From: a virus
Lineage: Duplodnaviria; Heunggongvirae; Uroviricota; Caudoviricetes
Strand: one strand, 5' to 3'
DNA length: 34,820 bases
IMG/VR virus record: IMGVR_UViG_3300037751_000382
Location: 66,619 to 101,438 of that record
In this document: piece after piece, positions 17,344 through 34,016 of the stretch
Layout: every line of letters begins with the position of its first letter
How positions within the stretch are numbered: position 1 is the stretch's first letter
Notes under the pieces: model-generated
Told to the model about the DNA's origin: nothing
What the model saw: the letters and a program-made list of their open reading frames with translations, nothing else
The model's database searches: none
Position numbers and translations under genes: made by a program

Positions 17344-17562
17344 TTAATCCTCATATTTTTGTAAGAAAATGCCCCAAGCAATAGCTACCCACATGTTACG
17401 ATCTTCATTACACATATCACATGCTTCAATGTCCTCAGCATCTGTTGTTACTCGTATAATATCTATCTCTAGTGCCCGTGGAATATTATACTTATCTCTG
17501 CCCCAAGTAATGTAAACCTCAATATAGGCGTCATTAGTTTCAAATACCATATTACTATTCAT
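17344..17562 (-). CDS. hypothetical protein
   Basis: ORF tightly packed in a - strand run. Confidence 0.55.
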   Translation of the reverse strand: MNSNMVFETNDAYIEVYITWGRDKYNIPRALEIDIIRVTTDAEDIEACDMCNEDRNMWVAIAWGIFLQKYED

Positions 17563-17758
17563 TGTTTTCCCTTTCCATACAATCTCTCCAACCTATAATA
17601 TATGCTAAAATTTGTTTACCATTTTCACTAGGACCTTCATAGTGAAACTCTTTACCGTCAAAATAAAAATAATCATTAATACCTTCCGGGATAATTTTAT
17701 ACTGTTGCAAGGACTCCATGATCCTTTCACCTAGATGGTTTTTCATATTGATGTTCAT
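17555..17758 (-). CDS. hypothetical protein immediately downstream of the CRISPR array
   Basis: ORF begins 5 nt after the terminal repeat. Confidence 0.55.
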   Translation of the reverse strand: MNINMKNHLGERIMESLQQYKIIPEGINDYFYFDGKEFHYEGPSENGKQILAYIIGWRDCMERENNE

Positions 17759-17762
17759 TATA

Positions 17763-18235
17763 CTCTCAGTGGTTATATGATTCGTTCTCCACTCCTGGGA
17801 TATCCCAAGCGGTTTAACAGCATCTTGCGAGCACCACCCTCAGTGGTTATACGATTCGTTCTCCACTCCTGGGATTTTACTGTGCAATCGAATTCATTTA
17901 GGCGCGGCCCCTCAGTGGTTATACGATTCGTTCTCCACTCCTGGTTCCACCATAGGTCCCACAATTGTTTCTAGTTCCTCACCCTCAGTGGTTATACGAT
18001 TCGTTCTCCACTCCTGGGAACTAGTCCTACAAACTTTCCCTGAAATCTCTAATCCCTCAGTGGTTATACGATTCGTTCTCCACTCCTGGGCACCTATACA
18101 AGGTAGAGAGGTAACAATGATTGATTCCCTCAGTGGTTATACGATTCGTTCTCCACTCCTGGAAGATGGCAATCGATCACTACCGCGTGAAAGAACGACC
18201 CCTCAGTGGTTATACGATTCGTTCTCCACTCCTGG
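17763..18235 (-). CRISPR. CRISPR array: 7 x 36-nt repeats, 6 spacers of 36-38 nt
   Basis: Repeat (- strand) CCAGGAGTGGAGAACGAATCGTATAACCACTGAGGG at 17763 (2 mismatches, terminal), 17837, 17909, 17982, 18054, 18127 and 18200; AGTGG/CCACT stem; orientation inferred from the degenerate end and the adjacent gene. Confidence 0.97.
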
Positions 18236-18357
18236 GGCTGCTACGTAAGTGTAGATATCCCAAGCGGTTTAACAGCATCTTGCGAGCACCCCCATAGCCT
18301 ATAGCATATCGGCGCTCACACTCGCCACGGAGGGTGGCGTCATCGATTCGTAACATC
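18236..18357 (-). promoter_or_regulatory. CRISPR leader / candidate tracr- or scout-RNA region
   Basis: 122-nt gap between effector stop and first repeat; CGCCAC/GTGGCG hairpin; 9/10 anti-repeat at 18325-18334. Confidence 0.65.
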
Positions 18358-19731
18358 TTACGTCTCCATGTATTGTAGAATTTGCGAGAGGTTCCCAGCA
18401 TTTCCAAGACACCTAACCTCTCGAAGCCAGTCAACAATTGATTCTAGTTTAAACCATTCACCCATTACACGGCAATGAGCAAATTGTGCGTGGTATTGTT
18501 TCTCAATTTTTCTTAAATTACTTTTTGCAGTTTTATGGGTCGCCAAGACAATGAGTTCTTGACCACCTGCATTTTCAAGTGTTTTTTTCCTCGTGCCTTT
18601 TTTATCCCCTGTCATCCCAATTTTAACTTTCCCGTCAAATTTACCGTTGTTTACCGAAGCTAGAAAATAAACATGGGGTTCATCTAACTCTGCGGGGTGT
18701 ATGTCGTTTGTGATTTCACAGAACGAAAGTCCAACATTCTCACACTTATTTTTTAAAGTTTCACAGAATTTATAATACGGAAACTGTGTCCCAAAATAAC
18801 TCTTAATTGTTCCATCATATTCTAGTGAAGCTACTTTTCGTCGCCTTGCATAGTCTACAATGTGTGCAACTGTTTCTTGAATGAACGAGTTTACCCGGTC
18901 ACAGTATTTCTTTGATACTTTGTTTTGAATTTTAATCAACTGTTGCCGAGTGTGGCCACTTTTACGATCCTGTCGTAATCGTTGTTGCTTACGGTTCCGC
19001 TCATTTTGCCAACTTCGTACGTGGTCAGCGTTCACAGTGAATGGGGTATCAGCATCTGTTTTCATTGCAACTATAAACGATTCTCTGGCTATTCTGACTG
19101 TAAGACAACCGTCCTTAATACAATTATCTTCAGACGGTTCCAATTTACAAGCTAACCCTAACATAGGTATTTCTTTACCCCCTACCTTTTGTAACCAAAT
19201 CTTAGAGTCTCCTACACTGACCGCCTTCTTAATGGTGTTTAGTGGTAGTCGATAATTACTTCCACCTCTCAACTGTACCTTATATTTTTTGCCTGTCAAC
19301 AAAGAAAAATTAGCAATTAAATTACCATCATCGTCCGTTTCAATATTAAGATTGCGTGTAGACTTATTACTAAGCAACGGAACCGAGCAATTTCGCTGAG
19401 TAGGTAGCGAACATCTTCCATTTAATATGTCCCATCTCTTTGAGACATAGACTTTCCAAGCGTTACGCGCTAATGCTGCCTGAACACTCGCACACCCTTT
19501 AAATTGACCAGCTAATACTGGATAGGGGTATATTTTCCCTTGTTTTGGTATAGGTTCACCGCGTGAAACTTTTTCATAAGCATCCTTATCTTGTGATAAA
19601 CACTCCGCTAAACATCGATTTGTAGCAGCTACACATTTTTTAATATCTTGTCGCAGGTCAACATAGAATTCCTTGGGTGTTCCACCCTCAAGTATTTTTG
19701 CGACGGGAATTTTAATGGTTCGTGTAAACAT
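18358..19731 (-). CDS. Cas12f/TnpB-like RNA-guided protein with degenerate RuvC fused to a C-terminal T5orf172/GIY-YIG nuclease domain
   Basis: N-terminal TRTIKI, SLPT, helix RVNSFIQETVAHIVDYARRRKVASLEYD, FPYYKFCETLKNKCENVG; C-terminal VYFL..KVKIGMT..R..IEKQYH..GEWF; adjacent array; ATG 19731 has a GAGGA RBS (track start GTG 19737). Confidence 0.8.
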   Translation of the reverse strand: MFTRTIKIPVAKILEGGTPKEFYVDLRQDIKKCVAATNRCLAECLSQDKDAYEKVSRGEPIPKQGKIYPYPVLAGQFKGCASVQAALARNAWKVYVSKRWDILNGRCSLPTQRNCSVPLLSNKSTRNLNIETDDDGNLIANFSLLTGKKYKVQLRGGSNYRLPLNTIKKAVSVGDSKIWLQKVGGKEIPMLGLACKLEPSEDNCIKDGCLTVRIARESFIVAMKTDADTPFTVNADHVRSWQNERNRKQQRLRQDRKSGHTRQQLIKIQNKVSKKYCDRVNSFIQETVAHIVDYARRRKVASLEYDGTIKSYFGTQFPYYKFCETLKNKCENVGLSFCEITNDIHPAELDEPHVYFLASVNNGKFDGKVKIGMTGDKKGTRKKTLENAGGQELIVLATHKTAKSNLRKIEKQYHAQFAHCRVMGEWFKLESIVDWLREVRCLGNAGNLSQILQYMET

Positions 19732-20060
19732 AATCACATTTCCTCACTGTAAAATCTTTCTAGTCCTTCACGTGCTTCACAAGCACTATGTTTATTAGGA
19801 TAGGGACCGCAGGGATCGTCTTCATCGGGCAGCTCAATCCAGTACTCCCTATCTATCTTTACAATTTTAAGTTTCATTTCTTTTCCTTCTTAAGGGGTAT
19901 TTTAATAGGCAACAAATCACCTAAGGCTTCACGTATCTTAGCAAATGTTTTCAAAGCTAACGAGTGACCAGTGACTTCCTGCCAAGTTCTTTCGATTTCA
20001 CAGGTACAGAAATCCACAAAATCATCTCTATCATGTTTACTCATTTTCATTTCCTTTCAG

Positions 20061-20547: not shown

Positions 20548-20802
20548 TTAGTTATCCTTTCTAAGTAAATTGTAACATGGATTTGGTTACTGTCAAATTA
20601 AAATTTTATATAGAAAGTTTTATCTGAAAATCTCACTTTAAAATTTTTACGAGAAAATTTTTAAGTTCCACGCTCAGCTCGGCCACTATTAATATTAGCG
20701 CTAATATTAGCGCTAATATAAGCGCTAATAGCGCTAATATATACACATTAATTAATGACCAAAACCGCACTAACGAGGAGGTCACCGGACTATCGGACCC
20801 TA

Positions 20803-21020
20803 ATATCTCTATATCTCTATATCTCTATATCCCTATATCTCTGTATCTCTATATCTCTATATCTCTATATCCCTATATCTCTATATCTCTATATCTCTAT
20901 ATCTCTATATCTCTATATCTCTATATCTCTATATCTCTATATCTCTATATCTCTATGTATCTTTATCTATGTGTATCTTTATCTATGTGTATCTTTATCT
21001 ATATGTCTCTGTATCTATAT
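20803..21020. repeat. (ATCTCT)n microsatellite, degenerating rightwards
   Basis: Direct reading. Confidence 0.95.
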
Positions 21021-21035
21021 GTGTCACCTTACCAC

Positions 21036-21341
21036 TTGGCCACCTGACCACCCTGGACAGCTACCAGTCACCTGGCCGATGTCCTAACCACCCTGGACAG
21101 CTACCAGTCACCTGGCCGATGTCCTGGTCACCTGGCCGATGTCCTGGCCACCCTGGACAGCTACAGTCACCTGGCCACCCTGGACAGCTACCAGTCACCT
21201 GGCCACCCTGGACAGCTACCAGTCACCTGGCCGATGTCCTGGCCATCTGGCCGATGTCCTGGCCACCCTGGACAGCTACCAGTCACCTGGACACCCTGGA
21301 CAGCTACCAGTCACCTGGCCGATGTCCTGGCCACCCTGGAC
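21036..21341. repeat. complex tandem repeat of CCACCCTGGACAGCTACCAGTCACCTGG and CCGATGTCCTGG modules
   Basis: Direct reading. Confidence 0.92.
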
Positions 21342-21997: not shown

Positions 21998-22011
21998 TTA
22001 ATAGGTAGCCG

Positions 22012-22370
22012 GGTCTTGGGTGACCTGTCTTGGGTGACCTGTCTTGGGTGACCTGTCTTGGGTGACCTGTCTTGGGCACGCGGGCCACCAGCCGGGTGAC
22101 CTGTCTTGGGTGACCTGTCTTGGGTGACCTGTCTTGGGTGACCAGCTATGCGACTTATAAAGATAAATTGATAAAAATATCCAATTTTATCAAGTGATGG
22201 ATAAAGATAAATTGATAAAAATATCCGATTTTGTTAATTGGGCCACCAGCCAGGTGACCTGTCTTGGGTGACCTGTCTTGGGTACGCGGGCCACCAGCCG
22301 GGTGACCTGTCTTGGGTGACCAGCTACGCGACTTATAAAGATAAATTGATAAAAATATCCAATTTTAATC
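22012..22370. repeat. 14-bp tandem repeats (GGGTGACCTGTCTT) interleaved with AT-rich AAAGATAAATTGATAAAAATATCC units; block duplicated
   Basis: Direct reading. Confidence 0.9.
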
Positions 22371-22717: not shown

Positions 22718-23926
22718 ATGCCTATTCATTGTGTACACTGTTGCGACGACTTGCCAAGCACCCATGATCAAATTGTTGACGGGGCTTATGTTTGCGATAC
22801 TTGTTATAATGAGTGTTTTGAATGCGCTAATTGTGGTGCACTATTACACACAAGTGACATGGTTTGCAATGATGAAAATAATTTGTATTGTCCAGACTGT
22901 TATGATGAACGATTCACTAGGTGTGAAGAATGCAATTGTGAAATATCTAGTGATGAGGTATATACGTACAATGATAATCAGTATTGTGCGTCATGTTATA
23001 ATGACAATTATTGTCAGTGTGAAGGGTGCAGCGTAGTTTACCCCCTGGAAACAATGGTTCATAATCCTAACAATTGCAGCCAATGGTATTGTCCAGACTG
23101 CCACGAAAGTGATTGCTGGGACAGTGGCGATGACGTAATAGGCCACACTTTCACTGAATTAAGGTCAACCAGAAGATATGGAATTGAGTTAGAGTTTTCC
23201 CGATGCAATGATTACATGGAATTGCAAGAAAAAACATGTTATGGGGCAAAGAATGATGGCACAAGTGGTGTTGAAAAGGAGTTTGTTAGCCCAATTCTCC
23301 AGGGGGATGAAGGATTAAACATAACAAGGAAATTTTTGCATTATGCCGATGATAATGATTTTGAGGTCGACAAAACTTGTGGCTACCATTTACATATTGA
23401 TTGTACTAATCTAACGATACCACAGTTGCGTGCAATTGCAATGGCATACCAGTATACCTATAAGATATGGAAGTACTTTGTTCCTGAATCACGTAGGTGT
23501 AATTATTATTGTAGGGAATATACCTATAAGTCTAACGATATCCTTTCTATGGATTTTGACGATCTGATAGACCTACCAGAATCTAGGTACATTTGGGCTA
23601 ACTGGGAAGCTTATAAACGGCATCATACTTTGGAGATACGGCTGCACACCGGTAGCACAGATGAAACAAAAATAATCAATTGGGTAAAAGCGCACCTACG
23701 CTTTGTGGATTATGTTCTAGGTTACACTGCGCTGGAGTTACATAACTTGCTCCAAGATGCTGATAAAGACGAATTGTTTAAATTTATGGCTGATACTTGG
23801 AATGATGATGTATTGACTTCATTCTATTTCAAGCGTGCTAACAAATTTGGGGGAAGATTACATTATGAAAATATTAGTGATTCAGACGATTGTAGCGACA
23901 TTTTATGTTCATCACCTATCAACTAA
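22718..23926 (+). CDS. putative amidoligase (COOH-NH2 ligase) with N-terminal multi-CxxC zinc-ribbon repeats
   Basis: YGIELEF, EFVSPIL, TCGYHLHID, RY...N, TLEIRLH motifs. Confidence 0.88.
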   Translation: MPIHCVHCCDDLPSTHDQIVDGAYVCDTCYNECFECANCGALLHTSDMVCNDENNLYCPDCYDERFTRCEECNCEISSDEVYTYNDNQYCASCYNDNYCQCEGCSVVYPLETMVHNPNNCSQWYCPDCHESDCWDSGDDVIGHTFTELRSTRRYGIELEFSRCNDYMELQEKTCYGAKNDGTSGVEKEFVSPILQGDEGLNITRKFLHYADDNDFEVDKTCGYHLHIDCTNLTIPQLRAIAMAYQYTYKIWKYFVPESRRCNYYCREYTYKSNDILSMDFDDLIDLPESRYIWANWEAYKRHHTLEIRLHTGSTDETKIINWVKAHLRFVDYVLGYTALELHNLLQDADKDELFKFMADTWNDDVLTSFYFKRANKFGGRLHYENISDSDDCSDILCSSPIN

Positions 23927-24013
23927 TGAGCTAGTTGACTTGCAACTGGCTCTAAGTATGCTAGGCTTTTGTTACGGGTTTCCTATCCTTCACACTTATA
24001 TAAAGGGTTAACT

Positions 24014-24826
24014 ATGTGCGGCATATTCGGGGCAATCGGTAAAGGATGGAATAAGTCAATCGTCCGTGGACTAGCAATTGCCAATAGGGATAGGGGTACT
24101 GATTCCCTTGGGTTCGTTATTAGTGATTATAGGATGTGGAAGGAAGCCAATGATCCATTGAACTGTATGACTTATGACTCTTTTAATGATTACACCAAAC
24201 TGTGGGATAGCTCTTGGTTTGTGATTGGTCACACTAGAGCCGCAACTAGGGGAAATGTCACGAGAAAGAATGCACACCCCTTTCGACGTGGTAAGTGGGT
24301 AGGTGTCCACAACGGAATTATTTCAGCCCCCACTACATGCGAAGTAGACAGTATGCATCTATGGGAACAATTGAAACGATACAAAGGGGACTACCAAAAG
24401 GCCTGGGAAAACATTTGGGGCAATTGGGGGTTGGCATGGTATGATGGCAACCACGTTTATCTGCAAGCGCACGATCAATCCCTTGCCAGTGTAACTATTA
24501 GCGGGGTGACATACTTTAGCAGCGATCATCGGCACCTTAGTGCGGTCACTGGTGTAAACGAATGCTGGGATTATATTGAGGGGGAAACATGGAAGTATCT
24601 CAAAAACGGATCATGTGTGGAATGTCCCATTTTTGAGGAAAACTTGGAGGTATGCTGGGTTAACCGTAAAAATGATAATGTTAAATTTATCAATTCTCCT
24701 GATCACTTCAAACATGTTGAGAAAATGGATAATGAAAGAGCGTGGGATCATGAAGCTTGGGATGAATATGTAAGGGATTATGACAATAAGGAAAATCACA
24801 CTTATTACAGCGGTAGCGCTGATTAG
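24014..24826 (+). CDS. class II (Ntn) glutamine amidotransferase
   Basis: MCGIFG N-terminal nucleophile, RG.DS.G, GHTRAAT.G, NAHPF, HNG, VDS. Confidence 0.92.
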   Translation: MCGIFGAIGKGWNKSIVRGLAIANRDRGTDSLGFVISDYRMWKEANDPLNCMTYDSFNDYTKLWDSSWFVIGHTRAATRGNVTRKNAHPFRRGKWVGVHNGIISAPTTCEVDSMHLWEQLKRYKGDYQKAWENIWGNWGLAWYDGNHVYLQAHDQSLASVTISGVTYFSSDHRHLSAVTGVNECWDYIEGETWKYLKNGSCVECPIFEENLEVCWVNRKNDNVKFINSPDHFKHVEKMDNERAWDHEAWDEYVRDYDNKENHTYYSGSAD

Positions 24827-24835
24827 GAAATCACT

Positions 24836-25063
24836 ATGTCACCCAGCGGAATTAGGGACCACAGTACAGACTACTGGCAGATATATGGGATTCGTGCGCG
24901 GTTGACTGTGAATTGTCTACACAGTGCGATTGAGCACATAAGAGCATTAGCAGGTACAATGCAAGTCAATCATAAAATTACTATTGTGTCACCAAAAGGG
25001 AATGTGTGGATTATTCCAGCGAATATGGATATAGAGCGCAAAAATGCCAAAAAGGTTTCTTGA
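24836..25063 (+). CDS. hypothetical protein
   Basis: ORF with AGGA RBS. Confidence 0.5.
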   Translation: MSPSGIRDHSTDYWQIYGIRARLTVNCLHSAIEHIRALAGTMQVNHKITIVSPKGNVWIIPANMDIERKNAKKVS

Positions 25064-25121
25064 CAGTAGCTCTTTTACATAGTAGCATTGTAAAAACATC
25101 ACTTGTAAATGGGAATCTAAA

Positions 25122-26099
25122 ATGATCTGTCATTGTTGCTGCGAACAACTTGCTCCTGAAAATGAGCCAATCCTTTACGAGGGGAATTATTTATGCCACC
25201 ACTGCTGGGTTGCAATTACGGGTGTAACGTGTCGTGATTGTCAATGTGTAAGACGTGTTAATCAAATGGTCTATTTTAACGGTTTTCCCTATTGTATCAG
25301 GTGTGCTAAAAAACCCAACTGGAAAATGGGGAAAGACGTTATAGGCCACACTTTCAATGAAATAAGGTCAAAGCGTAGGTATGGTGTGGAATTGGAGGTG
25401 CATCAATGCACACAGCACTACCAATTGAAGGGGAAAACTTGCTTTGGTGCCAAGGATGATGGCACTAGGGGTGTTGCTAAAGAATTCGTTAGTCCTATTT
25501 TACAGGGGGATGAGGGATTAAGGGCCATTAGGGACCTATGCAATAATTCCAAAGGGTTCACAGTTAACCATACTTGCGGATATCACTTGCATATTGATTG
25601 CACCGATCTTACGGAAGATCAGTGTAAGTCGGTGGCCCTAGCCTATAATATGACATATGACGTTTGGGCTAGTTTTGTGAATCAAAAGCGTAGAGACAAT
25701 CGATACTGTAAAATGCATGAGTGGAGTTATTATGATATTCTCAATTATTCATGGAATAATTTACTTAACAATATTTACACTAGATACACTTGGGCGAATT
25801 GGGACGCCTATAAACTCCACCATACGCTTGAAATACGATTGCACCCCGGAACGCTGGATCAAGGTAAAATAATTAATTGGGTCAAAGCGCACTTGCGGTT
25901 TGTGGACTATTTTCTCAAGTTTACTCCACAACACACCTATGATATGCTTAATGACCTAAACAACGATCAATTGTTTGAGTTTATGTGTGACATTTGGAAC
26001 GATTCTAAGTTGAGTAAGTATTACAAGCGTAGGTCTAAGCATTATGGATTAGCCCAAAAGCCAGTGGCCCAAGAGTCATGGGTGAGTGGTGAGTGGTGA
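25122..26099 (+). CDS. second putative amidoligase with fewer zinc-ribbon repeats
   Basis: YGVELEV, EFVSPILQGDEGL, TCGYHLHID, TLEIRLH; close paralog of 22718. Confidence 0.88.
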   Translation: MICHCCCEQLAPENEPILYEGNYLCHHCWVAITGVTCRDCQCVRRVNQMVYFNGFPYCIRCAKKPNWKMGKDVIGHTFNEIRSKRRYGVELEVHQCTQHYQLKGKTCFGAKDDGTRGVAKEFVSPILQGDEGLRAIRDLCNNSKGFTVNHTCGYHLHIDCTDLTEDQCKSVALAYNMTYDVWASFVNQKRRDNRYCKMHEWSYYDILNYSWNNLLNNIYTRYTWANWDAYKLHHTLEIRLHPGTLDQGKIINWVKAHLRFVDYFLKFTPQHTYDMLNDLNNDQLFEFMCDIWNDSKLSKYYKRRSKHYGLAQKPVAQESWVSGEW

Positions 26100-26987: not shown

Positions 26988-27139
26988 CTACTGGGTGACA
27001 GGTAGCTGTCCAGGTGACGGGGGCGTCTACTGGGTGACAAGGGGCATCTACTGGGTGACCGGTAGCTGTCCGGGTGACCGGGGCGTCTACTGGGTGACAA
27101 GGGGCGTCTACTGGGTGACCGGTAGCTGTCCGGGTGACA
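26988..27139. repeat. 20/21-bp tandem repeats (CTACTGGGTGAC... / GGTAGCTGTCCGGGTGAC), inverted relative to the 21036 and 33427 blocks
   Basis: Direct reading and reverse-complement comparison. Confidence 0.88.
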
Positions 27140-27207
27140 TTTTATTTGACAAGTACAATTTAGTGTGGTACATTTCATTAGTTACCTATCATCTTGGAGT
27201 TAATGAA

Positions 27208-29852: not shown

Positions 29853-30062
29853 ATGACAACTAAGCTAGAGAAATATCATGTTAAACAAGTCATCGAAGAA
29901 ATAGGGATATTTGGCATGGTGATGTGTTTAACGGAGTATTGCCAAGATAAAGAGAATGAAGCGAATAAAAAGGACAATTGGGTAGACTTGCACAAATACT
30001 GTAATGTGCATGAGTCATTAATCCATTGCCAGCAAATACTTTGGAAACATGGTTTCCGATAA
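29853..30062 (+). CDS. small helical protein (family with 27937 and 28327)
   Basis: VIEEIGIFGMVMCLTEYC. Confidence 0.6.
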   Translation: MTTKLEKYHVKQVIEEIGIFGMVMCLTEYCQDKENEANKKDNWVDLHKYCNVHESLIHCQQILWKHGFR

Positions 30063-30127
30063 TTTGACTTTCCCTTGGTTCCATGGTACTGTTGAGTGGA
30101 CGGTTAACATTCACTAAGGGGTCCACC

Positions 30128-30289
30128 ATGAGATACTGGCAAATGTGCACTGGTGACTATTTGGTCAGTGTGCAACAGTTACCTAGTGGCACATGGCTCG
30201 CTAGTACAGGATTGAAAATGGTTCTTGATAAGTGGGGAACCACCCTTAGGATATCTAGCGGAGCAAACGATCGGTGGGTTGTATTTTGA
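30128..30289 (+). CDS. small hypothetical protein
   Basis: ATG after AAGGGG, behind promoter 30064. Confidence 0.5.
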   Translation: MRYWQMCTGDYLVSVQQLPSGTWLASTGLKMVLDKWGTTLRISSGANDRWVVF

Positions 30290-30343
30290 TGTCCCTGATA
30301 GTTTAAGGGACTAACCTTTTACTTGTAAGTGGAGTTAATTGCA

Positions 30344-30565
30344 ATGGGACTAGAAAGACAATTATTCAATTGGGATGGGGGTTGGGATGACATCGATGAG
30401 GGAGTTTATCTATTTTATGATTGCACCTTGGTTGTGCCCATTGGCAATCATCCTGTAGGCGCACATTTTGAGACTGTGATGTTTGATATCCAACATAGTC
30501 AATTGGCTCTGCAAAATGATGGGGAGGAATCTGTTTTCAAGCTACTGGTGACCGTTGTAAGGTAA
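30344..30565 (+). CDS. hypothetical protein, probable paralog of 22454-22654
   Basis: TAAGTGGAG RBS; stop codon inside the hairpin element. Confidence 0.65.
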   Translation: MGLERQLFNWDGGWDDIDEGVYLFYDCTLVVPIGNHPVGAHFETVMFDIQHSQLALQNDGEESVFKLLVTVVR

Positions 30566-30922
30566 CCTTTACCCCGCGCTCTTTCAGGGTAAAGATTACC
30601 TGTAAGTGGGTGGCCTTGTAAGTGGGTGGCCTTGAAAATTTTTATTTGACTTTCGCGGGGCACATGGTACTATTGAGTGTACGGTTAACGTTCACTTTTT
30701 AAAGGGACAAAAATGATCACTTTACTCTGTGCCGGATTCATTGTGTACTGCTGGGTACGAATTAGTTACATCAATCCAAGGACCTACTACTAATGGTCGA
30801 TGGCCAGAAAAGATACAGACGAAACCGATCAGTGGTACGGGTACGTTGGTATGCTTTGTGGCGATCAATCCGGTTTAACCGAAGGTACGGGTTACTGGTT
30901 ACTTGTAAGTGGAGTAGAACCA

Positions 30923-31138
30923 ATGACAATCGGTCAATTGATTAAGGAATTGCATACTTTTTATGGATTCCTCTTTGAGTTTCAACGGGTAGCAGATGAC
31001 CGTGGTTCACTAGTCCTTCGATCCGGGAATCTAACTCCAGTTGCTACGTTTTGTGTATGTAATGTTAATGCTGGATATTCATGCGCAAATGATTCAGGGT
31101 GGCAGTGGGGTAGAGAAGTGTACCATGGTTCCCTCTAA
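30923..31138 (+). CDS. hypothetical protein, paralog of 29154-29411
   Basis: TAAGTGGAG RBS; YGFLFEFQRV..DRGSL.L...NDSGW. Confidence 0.65.
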   Translation: MTIGQLIKELHTFYGFLFEFQRVADDRGSLVLRSGNLTPVATFCVCNVNAGYSCANDSGWQWGREVYHGSL

Positions 31139-31377
31139 AATTTTTATTTGACTTTCGCTGGGCAAAGGAAAGTGCGGCAGTGCGCTGGATTGCAGCATGT
31201 TACTACGCTGGTGTTTACAATACGGAAATGTTGTATTCTTTCTGTTGTCCCGATAGCTGTGGGTTTTCAATGCTTAACCTAGATCAAGTGAAAATGATTA
31301 TTGACTTGAGGTAACCTTTACCTCTTGTGGGAGCGCGGTCAAAGGTTACTCTGTTACCTGTAAGTGGAGTGGTAGTT

Positions 31378-31605
31378 ATGATACCCATAAAAAGAGTTTA
31401 TGTTAAAAACTCAGGGCCTTGTGGTTTTGTGGTTTTTGCAGAATCTGATCATCCGGTAATAACTAATCTTTATCGTTTTGACAATGGTCAAGGTGAAGGG
31501 GTGATTTTTACTGGTTATACTCGTGCGATGGATTTTGTGCAATTTGTTCAGGAGAAGGGACATATTAGCAAAAAGGGTTGGACGTTTGTTGATTCTTATG
31601 CCTAA
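31378..31605 (+). CDS. hypothetical protein
   Basis: TAAGTGGAG RBS. Confidence 0.6.
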   Translation: MIPIKRVYVKNSGPCGFVVFAESDHPVITNLYRFDNGQGEGVIFTGYTRAMDFVQFVQEKGHISKKGWTFVDSYA

Positions 31606-31695
31606 TGTTACTTGTAAATTTTATTTGACTTTCACTGGACACGTGGTACTATTGAGTGTACGGTTACCTTGTTACTTGTAAGTGGAGAGTTGAAA

Positions 31696-31941
31696 ATGCA
31701 CACTTCAGTTAATGACTTGATCCGTTCACTACAACAATTTCCGGGGGATACGCCAGTTATCGGGGTGACCTTGAAAGGGGTAGCTTCGAACGTTATTTCG
31801 GTACAATGTTGTGCAGGGATTGATCCAGAAAAACCTAATAATTGTTTCATCTGTTTTTGGGATGAAATCGATAAAGGTCCATATCTTGGATACGTGGAAC
31901 CAACATGCGAGGCACCGGTGCCCAAGGCATTGTGTGACTAG
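31696..31941 (+). CDS. hypothetical protein
   Basis: SVNDLIRSLQQFPGDTPV phage-type N-terminus; own promoter. Confidence 0.65.
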   Translation: MHTSVNDLIRSLQQFPGDTPVIGVTLKGVASNVISVQCCAGIDPEKPNNCFICFWDEIDKGPYLGYVEPTCEAPVPKALCD

Positions 31942-32020
31942 GTAACAATTTTGTTTGACTTTCACTGGGTACATGGTACTATTGAGTGTACAGTTACCTT
32001 GTAAATAAGGAAACATAACA

Positions 32021-32227
32021 ATGCGTCCAAAATACATACATGCCAACCCCAAAAGAATCCAGGTACTATATGAGCCAGAACAATACAATCCAACGTGCAA
32101 TTGCACAATACCGGGTGCTTGGGTAGCAATACCTGATCATGGCCCAAAATTTACTTGTGGTGACACCTTAGACGAAACCATTGTGTATTTATCGGAAACA
32201 TACCCAAACGCCAAGATTATCCGTTGA
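32021..32227 (+). CDS. hypothetical protein (HicB-like N-terminal fold possible)
   Basis: WVAIPD..FTCGDTLDE pattern; own promoter. Confidence 0.55.
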   Translation: MRPKYIHANPKRIQVLYEPEQYNPTCNCTIPGAWVAIPDHGPKFTCGDTLDETIVYLSETYPNAKIIR

Positions 32228-32338
32228 TCCGTGTGAACTATTACATTGTAACTGTAAAATTATTTGACTTTCACCAGATACATGGTATTATTGAGTAGTT
32301 CAATATTACCCTGTTACTCGTAAGTGGAGTGTACTGAA

Positions 32339-32758
32339 ATGATGCCGAAATTACCAGTTAATGAAATGTTGTGTACTGCGGAAATTAGTGGTGAAGATAG
32401 GGAAATCATTTACGCTTGTTTTAACATGAATACTCAGAGACTGCGATCGGTCAGACCATTTCAAAGTGTGGATTGTGATAAATTTAAGAGTAAGGTCAAT
32501 TATGTGTGGCGGATGCTTTGCTTTTCTTTTTGCTCCAATCGACCCTACTCTTGTATGCCAGTTACTGCGGATTTTGACTTGTGCCATTTTTACTGGGTGC
32601 AGGAAAAGAATGGGTTAATAGGTAAGGAGGAAAGGAGAACAATGGAGAAAGAGACTATTAAGTCTCTTAATGACCTGATCAAGCGGTTTGAGGGTACCTT
32701 GCCTGTTACTTTTCAAACAGGAACAATGCGATGGGCTAGGGCATTTGGGGTCGTATAG
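32339..32758 (+). CDS. phage-type hypothetical protein
   Basis: RLRS..P...YVWRML.F..S....CMPVTADF; own promoter and TAAGTGGAG RBS. Confidence 0.75.
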   Translation: MMPKLPVNEMLCTAEISGEDREIIYACFNMNTQRLRSVRPFQSVDCDKFKSKVNYVWRMLCFSFCSNRPYSCMPVTADFDLCHFYWVQEKNGLIGKEERRTMEKETIKSLNDLIKRFEGTLPVTFQTGTMRWARAFGVV

Positions 32759-32880
32759 ATGGGTGGGAAGGGATTCCCTTTACTTGTAAATTGGATATGT
32801 TTATCTGTAAATTTGTTACCTGTAAGTTTTCAATGTACATCAGGATATATTTGTACATTAGTGAACATAAAATTGATGCC

Positions 32881-33063
32881 CGGTCACCCAGTCACCTAGT
32901 CACCTAGTCACCTAGTCACCTAGTCACCCAGTCACCTGGACGGTCACCCAGTCACCTGGACGGTCACCCAGTCACCTGGACGGTCACCCAGTCACCTGGA
33001 CGGTCACCCAGTCACCTGGACGGTCACCCAGTCACCTGGACGGTCACCCAGTCACCTGGACGG
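32881..33063. repeat. 9-bp and 20-bp tandem repeats (CGGTCACCCAGTCACCTGGA)
   Basis: Direct reading. Confidence 0.93.
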
Positions 33064-33146
33064 GGATGAAAATTTTCATTTGACTTTTGCCAGCCATATG
33101 GTACTATTGAGGGTACGGCTAACCTACTTTCAGAAAGGGTACGCAA

Positions 33147-33287
33147 ATGATCACTGTAAAGGTACGTCCTAATCAGTCTAGTCCATGGCAGTTGTTTGGT
33201 GTGGCCACCAGTTTGCAAAAGGCCTATCGTCTGATCGAATGCTATGGATGCCCCGAATATCACTGTCAAATTGAACGGGTCGGGTGA
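33147..33287 (+). CDS. small hypothetical protein (46 aa)
   Basis: Promoter 33080-33107 and AAAGGG RBS; not in the ORF track. Confidence 0.5.
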   Translation: MITVKVRPNQSSPWQLFGVATSLQKAYRLIECYGCPEYHCQIERVG

Positions 33288-33320
33288 GCGGTAAATGGTG
33301 AGCGGTAAATGGTGAGTAGT

Positions 33321-33358
33321 AAATTAGCCAGGTGACCGGTCACCTGGCTAATTTTTTT
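33321..33358 (+). terminator. perfect 34-bp palindrome running into a T-tract; probable intrinsic terminator
   Basis: AAATTAGCCAGGTGACC|GGTCACCTGGCTAATTT followed by TTTT. Confidence 0.6.
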
Positions 33359-33426
33359 CAATGTTAAAAATGGATATTTTCATCAATTTATCTGTTAATG
33401 AAATGTCACCCAATGAAATGTCGCCC

Positions 33427-33677
33427 GGACAGCTACCGGTCACCCATGAACGTCTACCGGTCACCCAGTAGACGCCCCGGTCACCTATGAGCGTCTACCG
33501 GTCACCCAGTAGACGCCCCGGTCACCTATGAGCGTCTACCGGTCACCCATGAACGTCTACCGGTTACCCAGTAGACGCCCGGTCACCTATGAACGTCTAC
33601 CAGTAGACGCCCCGGTCACCTATGAGCGTCTACCGGTCACCCAATAAAATGCCCCCATGAACGTCTACCGGTCACCT
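33427..33677. repeat. 20-bp tandem repeats with a GGTCACC core (CGTCTACCGGTCACC / CAGTAGACGCCCCGGTCACC)
   Basis: Direct reading. Confidence 0.9.
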
Positions 33678-33712
33678 GTTGGTACATTTTGGTTGACTTT
33701 CCAATATTCCAA

Positions 33713-33840
33713 AGTAAATTGTAAATTGTAAATGGTAAATGGTAAATGGTAAATGGTAAATGGTAAATGGTAAATGGTAAATGGTAAATGGTAAATGGTA
33801 AATGGTAAATGGTAAATGGTAAATGGTAAATGGTAAATGG
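33713..33840. repeat. 7-bp tandem repeat (GTAAATG), about 18 copies
   Basis: Direct reading. Confidence 0.95.
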
Positions 33841-34016
33841 TGGCCGAATTATGGAAAGATTATTATCGGTCAATTTACGGGTGACCGGGTTACTGGTAAA
33901 TGGCTCCAAGTTGCACAGAATGACTTGAGATGAATTTTTTAGGGTAACTGGTGTGTGGGGTGCTTGTTTTGTTTTAAGTTGATTCTAGGGCATTCTGTGC
34001 AATTGAGGGTAAAAAA

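Follow-up and report, generated by a model that had tools for sequence, protein, structure and literature searches.

A phage CRISPR spacer that matches the predicted tracrRNA gene of its own Cas12f-like locus

The most distal spacer of a phage CRISPR array (spacer X) matches the predicted tracrRNA gene of the same locus. It genuinely duplicates sequence from the 3' half of that gene, and we consider it, with a probability of about 0.58, to have been taken up in a one-off capture from self or kin and tolerated. Spacer X alone would be a curiosity; it brought to light a type V family, undescribed as far as our literature searches reach, with its effector and predicted guide-RNA scaffold. The system around the spacer is likely a type V variant with a Cas12f-like effector, a GIY-YIG replacement nuclease and a natural fused guide.

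The array and its distal spacer

The window (the whole stretch of DNA analysed) is the final 34.8 kb of a 101-kb virus record (G000), which is 96% complete. A single array was found in it, at 17763..18235 on the minus strand, with seven 36-nt repeats and six spacers of 36-38 nt. On the plus strand the repeats start at 18200, 18127, 18054, 17982, 17909, 17837 and 17763. The elements needed here are as follows.

18200-18235, minus strand: repeat 1, the first repeat
17763-17798, minus strand: repeat 7, the terminal repeat, with 2 substitutions and a start codon next to it at 17758
17799..17836, minus strand: distal spacer X, 38 nt, matching the tracrRNA gene at 37/38 positions
17804-17809, minus strand: anti-repeat inside spacer X, predicted to fold back onto the terminal repeat
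18254..18290, minus strand: copied segment in the tracrRNA gene (protospacer), with a G-rich 5' flank on the same strand

The first-pass annotation had described the distal spacer as a perfect copy of the array's own leader. Sequence comparison confirmed the identity over 37 nt in the same orientation: 17799-17835 equals 18254-18290 (37/37), with 0 further matching bases beyond either edge, and the leader-side copy ends 18 nt away from the first repeat. The spacer as a whole is not a perfect copy, being 38 nt long with a mismatch at position 1. On the crRNA (minus) strand its first base is T, compared with G at 18291, and this is seed position 1.

The minus-strand orientation of the crRNA assumed in that annotation agrees with the direction of the gene, with the way the tracrRNA pairs and with the mutations in the terminal repeat; on the same three grounds the plus-strand orientation of the array was dismissed. 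The two mutations of the terminal repeat were also found as described, at 17764 and 17778, and the remaining six repeats are unmutated. The substitution at 17764 changes GAGG to GAGA and breaks one pair of the loop-repeat helix predicted below. The contrast drawn earlier between a mutated repeat and an unmutated spacer carries no signal. With a Poisson model at the terminal-repeat rate, the probability of at most one difference in 38 nt is 0.38, and there is no statistical sign of purifying selection on spacer X.

Both copies were followed in sequencing runs, of which X1 or X2 may be the sample behind the record and X7 is coded as a different study. In run X1 all four junctions of the two copies were spanned by separate contigs at a depth of 28-38 (single-copy), and the depth of the shared 37-mer alone was 70.7. 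In run X2 contigs crossed 2/4 junctions, and a third contig started at the shared segment and continued into the gene. One 161-nt contig of run X7 (17706-17866) crossed the whole distal spacer with 0 differences. Both copies were present in the three runs and no variants were seen. The check for mis-assembly proposed with the first-pass annotation therefore found none, and an assembly artefact was dismissed as the source of the 37-nt match because junction contigs occur in independent runs.

Downstream of the array, 17141-17167 matches the terminal repeat together with the final four bases of spacer X at 22/27 positions, compared with 18/27 for the best background match elsewhere in the genome. 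It coincides with the start of a small downstream ORF and its ribosome-binding site, and is possibly a repeat relic or a match inflated by the ribosome-binding motif. A related phage in runs X7 and X8 (aligned to 17346-17736, with 43 differences over 283 aligned bases) keeps both genes downstream of the array and runs on into different sequence at the point of the array's start; within this lineage the CRISPR module therefore looks accessory.

Elsewhere in the window, a long 8-nt tandem tract and several families of short G+C-rich tandem repeats were seen at 20747-21340, 22000-22320, 27000-27150 and 32880-33850. Tandem repeats lie near a switch in GC skew at about 21-22 kb, and the tandem repeats are possibly elements of an origin or terminal region. 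A glutamine amidotransferase gene is flanked by two amidoligase-2 genes at 22718-26099, and a conserved promoter-like repeat of about 37 nt recurs at 30061-33112.

The predicted tracrRNA and the effector

The matched DNA had been taken for an ordinary leader. Covarying pairing points instead to a Cas12f-type tracrRNA fused to repeat 1, with the following predicted elements next to the effector gene.

18358..19737, minus strand: effector gene, 459 aa
18236..18372, minus strand: predicted tracrRNA, 137 nt, overlapping the last codons of the gene and continuous with repeat 1
18323..18339, minus strand: 5-bp hairpin with loop CCUC at 18330-18333, equivalent of Un1Cas12f1 Stem 3 / AR:R1
18281..18320, minus strand: long stem, equivalent of Stem 4, with a 3' arm that forms the 5' part of the copied segment
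18259..18264, minus strand: 6-nt anti-repeat CUUGGG, equivalent of AR:R2

The 5' edge was placed from stand-alone copies in relatives, to about +/-10 nt. The loop CCUC is predicted to pair with the GAGG that ends the 3' side of the repeat, and the anti-repeat with the final leader base and the first five bases of the repeat. In the long stem, G18291 faces G18310. The 18 nt between the copied segment and repeat 1 form a hairpin plus linker. Spacer X contains the 3' arm of the long stem, a linker and the anti-repeat, all from the 3' half of the predicted tracrRNA.

We fetched 18 homologous loci, some of them redundant (L002 = L013, L003 = L016). A multi-repeat array follows the gene in 13; in four the sequence runs out within 170 nt, and in L008 the 470 nt after the gene contain no array. 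In 14 anchored loci repeat 1 starts 155-157 nt past a fixed anchor near the gene end. L006 and L008 have a truncated or degenerate copy of the tracrRNA stretch. Between loci the repeats diverge widely, and the tracrRNA stretch is conserved and folds with covariation. Across 11 sequences, 90.4% of cells are paired and both sides have changed in 18/38 pairs; the fold scored above all 500 shuffles and all slid controls, the shuffle control being a generous one since the 11 sequences are related and the structure was drawn from the same sequences.

The pairing with the repeat covaries as well. Taken as the 6-mer preceding a conserved AUA motif in the homologous loci, the anti-repeat pairs with its repeat at 72/72 positions across 12/12 loci (G-U allowed), with compensatory changes; non-cognate combinations average 4.8/6 pairs. 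The observed score was reached by 1/200,000 permutations, computed over ten non-redundant loci with relatedness not modelled. Likewise, the loop CCUC stands opposite repeats ending in GAGG, and UCUC opposite GAGA in 3/11. RNAalifold had paired the repeat 3' end with a CUCUC inside the gene. This pairing was set aside in favour of the hairpin loop, because stand-alone cassettes do not have the upstream CUCUC segment and because the loop covaries. A search of Rfam gave nothing near a gathering score.

Stand-alone tracrRNA copies with one to four repeats and no gene occur in three related records (G002, G003 and G005), and since whole copies stand alone with repeats, the tracrRNA stretch is regarded as a unit. 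There are five copies in the 45-kb record G003 (one inverted), three in G002 and two in G005. The cassettes lie at L033, L035, L003 and L044 (G003), L034 and L032 (G002) and L031 (G005). In some of these cassettes the only repeat leads straight into a gene start or a guide-like stretch.

The effector consists of a Cas12f-like body (residues about 1-340) and a C-terminal MUG113/T5orf172 (GIY-YIG) domain (about 350-435). The 459-aa ORF has a weak OrfB_IS605 match and a MUG113 match (PF13455, residues 371-432) of 37.2 bits against a cut-off of 22.3. We found 48 homologs, mostly full length, the closest of which (P0001-P0009) have 42-55% identity, and aligned the query with 41 full-length homologs (n=42). 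The best solved relatives of the family profile are AsCas12f1 (PDB 7wju/8j12) and other Cas12f proteins (E 6e-18). A structure model (pLDDT 89, pTM 0.57) found the same Cas12f structures best with Foldseek (E 2e-17) and also matched MUG113/T5orf172 proteins in a viral fold library. PADLOC matched the effector as Cas12f, and it scores under the NCBIfam cut-offs for Cas12f. The C-terminal domain folded alone, without an alignment, reached pLDDT 44.5 and was discarded.

The RuvC triad is incomplete. The column of the RuvC-I Asp holds T22/S17/I1/L1/R1, with Asp in 0/42; the RuvC-II Glu is replaced by Asp in 41/42; and the part that aligns to Cas12f ends ahead of both the zinc finger and RuvC-III. 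The C-terminal cysteine (zinc finger) pattern was found in 0/75 proteins (P0001-P0075), and no Cas12f1-like_TNB Pfam match in the 42 family members. In its place, MUG113 is matched at E <= 0.001 in 24/42 members and T5orf172 in 5/42. Y357, K372, G374, E412, F419 and E427 are invariant (42/42) and R383 is present in 41/42; catalytic roles for Y357, R383, E412 and E427 were assigned by analogy with the protein described in PMC8263062, with no structural overlay. The gene in the window is intact and keeps the invariant residues of the family. Since RuvC is incomplete, cutting is likely done by the fused GIY-YIG domain in its place.

A sister group (P0076-P0188) consists of Cas12f-like proteins of about 400 aa that end right after the RuvC-II region. 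They align only over about 4-340; the GIY-YIG domain was found in 0/113 of the matches listed and an N-terminal cysteine pattern in 76/113 of them. By their sequences they are likely nuclease-dead RNA-guided binders. Because the sister group aligns over that part only and has no GIY-YIG domain, the fusion looks like an addition onto an already truncated Cas12f.

Slightly better than even is the chance that these loci hold a phage-borne family of 460-aa programmable DNA nucleases, with a Cas12f body whose RuvC has been lost, a fused GIY-YIG domain that cuts, and a natural single-guide. The latter would be the tracrRNA fused to repeat 1, copied by phages as stand-alone mini-array cassettes. If it is the GIY-YIG domain that does the cutting, RuvC can be replaced naturally in a Cas12, much as HNH has been brought into class 1 effectors, and the result would be a programmable nickase or nuclease of very small size whose cut geometry differs. 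The gene, the tracrRNA with covarying helices and ten repeat variants form a complete parts list, so that a PAM screen is directly possible, with the self-matching spacer X as a built-in negative control for the PAM.

Probable origin and tolerance of the distal spacer

In the reading that we prefer, the gene, tracrRNA and array would be read on the minus strand, and the tracrRNA would hold each repeat, in the manner of Cas12f, by two short helices, acting in cis on repeat 1 and in trans on the rest. The Cas12f-like body would open the target DNA and the fused GIY-YIG domain would cut it. Spacer X would have been captured once from the phage's own locus or that of a clonal sibling. As no Cas1 was found in the 96%-complete genome, capture would rely on Cas1-Cas2 borrowed from the host. 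Because the effector gene is intact, the self-site must escape, and it would be tolerated through the lack of a usable PAM and the mismatch at seed position 1. The expression and processing of the RNAs, the route of capture, the PAM and the activity of the nuclease are all inferred.

Capture is supported by the normal length of spacer X (38 nt; spacers of the family are mostly 35-39 nt) and by its position between two whole repeats. It is also supported by a second locus-derived spacer in the family. A spacer common to G002 and G005 (L002:5643-5678; L027) has its last 14 nt antisense to its own repeat, and its probable source is an array of this family. The sense piece from the leader side in spacer X and the antisense piece from the array side would fit a strand switch, with n=2 and an assumed strand convention. 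CRISPR loci have been described as acquisition hotspots in which the strand switches at the first spacer (PMC5737086), and DNA encoding structured RNAs as a hotspot for type III-A capture (PMC8860593).

Tolerance is argued from analogy with Cas12f. The PAMs of tested Cas12f proteins are T- or C-rich (PMC7229846), and the 5' flank of the self-site ends in TGG, in line with the G-rich flank noted in the first-pass annotation. Un1Cas12f1 has a 5-nt seed adjoining the PAM (PMC8053092), and the single mismatch between spacer and target falls within a seed of that length. The earlier suggestion that the leader copy is protected by a missing PAM is thus consistent with the flank, though the protospacer search came back empty: none was found for 71 spacers in 22 stretches (among them the whole of G000-G003 and G005 and nearly all of G004). 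The window array gave nothing beyond E = 8 matches in the phage collection. In viral contigs, two spacer-derived patterns had no match or matched only the array itself, and the window repeat had 0 matches. No partial array match occurred among the contigs from runs X1-X8 (X4 and X6 gave no contigs).

An autoregulatory guide, the first option of the annotation, should recur across the family, and homologous loci were to be checked for a leader-matching spacer. We compared 71 unique spacers of 28-45 nt (65 from homologs and 6 from the window, with shorter spacers and that of L006 excluded and no loci of the closest relatives P0001-P0009 included) with 11 tracrRNAs. Only spacer X matched any of them, with a runner-up of 21 identities, so the count in homologous phage arrays is 0/65. 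Judged by these arrays, spacer X is not a conserved autoregulatory guide. Its neutrality we infer from its rarity, the feature being seen in one lineage only.

The second option, a guide against the leader of a host CRISPR array, is extremely improbable, here taken together with an assembly artefact. Phage CRISPRs directed at host defences do exist (PMC11656645), but the matched DNA is a scaffold specific to the phage family of the window. Neither the effector family protein nor the repeat family was found in GTDB genomes. A pattern built from the repeat pair matched one unrelated Planctomycetota array only, with a different repeat in another register, and this match was put down to chance.

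In one respect the contents of spacer X speak against a functionless piece of DNA: the anti-repeat within it would, by prediction, fold with the terminal repeat into a hairpin, and this could be functional. In the predicted folds, the 5' bases of the repeat that follows spacer X are unpaired at 0.31, compared with 0.55-0.90 for the other five spacers. Spacer X might therefore regulate, either as a non-cutting guide parked on the tracrRNA gene or as an anti-repeat seal in cis that closes the terminal repeat so that the trailer yields no extraneous crRNA. Repeat 7 is also changed in its second pairing element, and terminal repeats of Cas12a are mutated in a way that blocks extraneous crRNAs (PMC6610086). 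Against this, none of the 65 homologous-array spacers does likewise, about a quarter of sense 38-mers drawn from the 137-nt tracrRNA would hold the anti-repeat by our estimate, and purifying selection leaves no signal (P = 0.38). The target also lies inside a predicted transcribed RNA rather than a promoter, and a promoter scan was at chance (8 sites compared with 7.1 expected, none at the target). We regard such a regulatory role as decidedly unlikely.

A donor other than the phage itself is suggested by the mismatched base. The T of spacer X could form a G-U pair with G18310, where the current tracrRNA has a G-G mismatch, hinting that T at the position of 18291 is an older or sibling state; this would suit an escape change as well as a sibling donor. 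Spacer X could then come from the tracrRNA gene of a competing sibling and disarm the sibling's system, the phage's own copy having escaped through position 1 and the PAM, both of which fall in the most variable part of the scaffold. Viral mini-arrays are mostly aimed at related viruses (PMC11656645), and three arrays of the family have near-identical spacer pairs, as if chasing variants. However, no variant tracrRNA was present in the contigs of runs X1-X8 (contigs drop rare variants), and several homologs also show internal mismatches at the same level of the stem. Such warfare among kin is quite unlikely. The broader idea that a captured anti-repeat has been reused, to seal the terminal repeat or to attack the tracrRNA genes of siblings, is unlikely too.

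The near-identical spacer pairs lie inside single arrays at L018:1055-1164, L003:5725-5905 and L001:2705-2950. In the L018 pair a single codon position accounts for five of the six differences, as though one stretch of a gene had been captured from two variants. At L001:2011-3056 the repeat type changes midway, from six repeats of one sequence to nine of another, and both types keep the two ends that pair with the tracrRNA.

The third option of the annotation was a relic of duplication. Slippage would have copied the tracrRNA's 3' end together with repeat 1, the 18-nt hairpin would have been lost, and later spacers would have displaced the unit. Spacer X does occupy the far end of the array, relatives carry single-repeat tracrRNA cassettes that are duplicated inside their genomes, and the absent 18 nt are a hairpin and a linker. 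At the left junction there is similarity in a G-run, but an extra T leaves no clean microhomology. Two events would be needed, landing on the exact length of a spacer, and no other array begins or ends with such a relic. Sequence alone cannot tell capture and slippage apart. A relic is possible, but given the normal length and the two whole repeats it is less likely than capture, and we rate it as very unlikely.

Comparison with known systems

Like type V-F Cas12f1 systems (AsCas12f1, Un1Cas12f1), the window system has Cas12f as its best profile, best fold and PADLOC match. It also has the order gene-tracrRNA-array without adaptation genes (PMC7229846) and, by prediction, the plan of the Un1Cas12f1 tracrRNA, namely a long stem, a 5-bp stem with a repeat-pairing loop, a long stem and a 3' anti-repeat (PMC8053092). 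Its effector, at 459 aa, is compact (about 400-700 aa in type V-F) and TnpB-derived with a Cas12f fold, and the predicted tracrRNA lies between gene and array with two short helices to the repeat. A complete RuvC catalytic triad and a C-terminal zinc finger (TNB/Nuc) are features of type V-F that were not found. Cas12f works as a dimer on one guide and cleaves dsDNA. In contrast to type V-F, the window family is without the RuvC-I Asp (42/42) and has Asp for the RuvC-II Glu, a GIY-YIG domain stands in place of the zinc finger and RuvC-III, the predicted tracrRNA continues without a break into repeat 1, and the family occurs on phage and metagenome contigs. As the RuvC triad and the zinc finger are wanting, we do not file the system as Cas12f proper; its sequences suggest a system like type V-F. 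The C-terminal domain belongs with the GIY-YIG superfamily (MUG113/T5orf172 type), with a profile score above the curated cut-off and conserved Tyr, Arg and Glu.

An inactivated RuvC is shared with nuclease-dead type V systems (dCas12f with a sigma factor, Cas12m, Cas12k and V-O/V-P; PMC12669027, PMC10691335), and the effector family profile matches 9n9c with E 1e-8. The stand-alone tracrRNA-repeat cassettes recall the tracr/half-repeat fusions described for the RpoE-linked clade. Those systems bind or recruit other machinery, whereas the window family has a predicted second nuclease domain and regular, expanding arrays.

Replacement of a native nuclease by a mobile one is also known from the HNH-substituted I-E2, I-F4 and IV-A2 and from phage II-C2 Cas9 with a dead RuvC (PMC12669027). 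These are class 1 or type II with HNH, and the present case is type V with GIY-YIG. The 2025 classification records type V effectors that have lost RuvC and class 1 effectors with HNH as a substitute; GIY is mentioned neither in its main text nor in its searchable supplementary files (PMC12669027), nor in the text and one supplement of a TnpB/Cas12 survey (PMC10691335). Our literature searches, mostly at the level of titles and abstracts and covering few subscription papers, gave no description of a fusion of Cas12/TnpB with GIY-YIG/T5orf172. The nearest parallel in architecture is Odn (Gp88) of phage ICP1, in which a phage T5orf172/GIY-YIG domain shown to cut DNA is fused to a borrowed targeting domain (PMC8263062). 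Odn is aimed by a protein domain, and the window effector is predicted to be RNA-guided. Cas12r of the Thermus Lalka phages has an active RuvC and no tracrRNA (bioRxiv 10.64898/2026.04.20.719267), and the window system, with its predicted tracrRNA and incomplete RuvC, differs on both points.

As for spacer X itself, the cr-like RNAs CreR, CreA, scaRNA and tracr-L are conserved across homologous loci and partially match a promoter flanked by a PAM. Spacer X differs from them, since it is not conserved across homologous loci (0/65) and is a near-full match inside the body of the tracrRNA instead of a promoter. It is closer to hotspot self-spacers, which derive from DNA adjoining an active array (PMC5737086), and to viral mini-arrays, which are phage arrays without cas1 (PMC11656645). 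Compared with both of these, the captured piece in the present phage is its own predicted tracrRNA including the anti-repeat, and it is fixed in the phage population.
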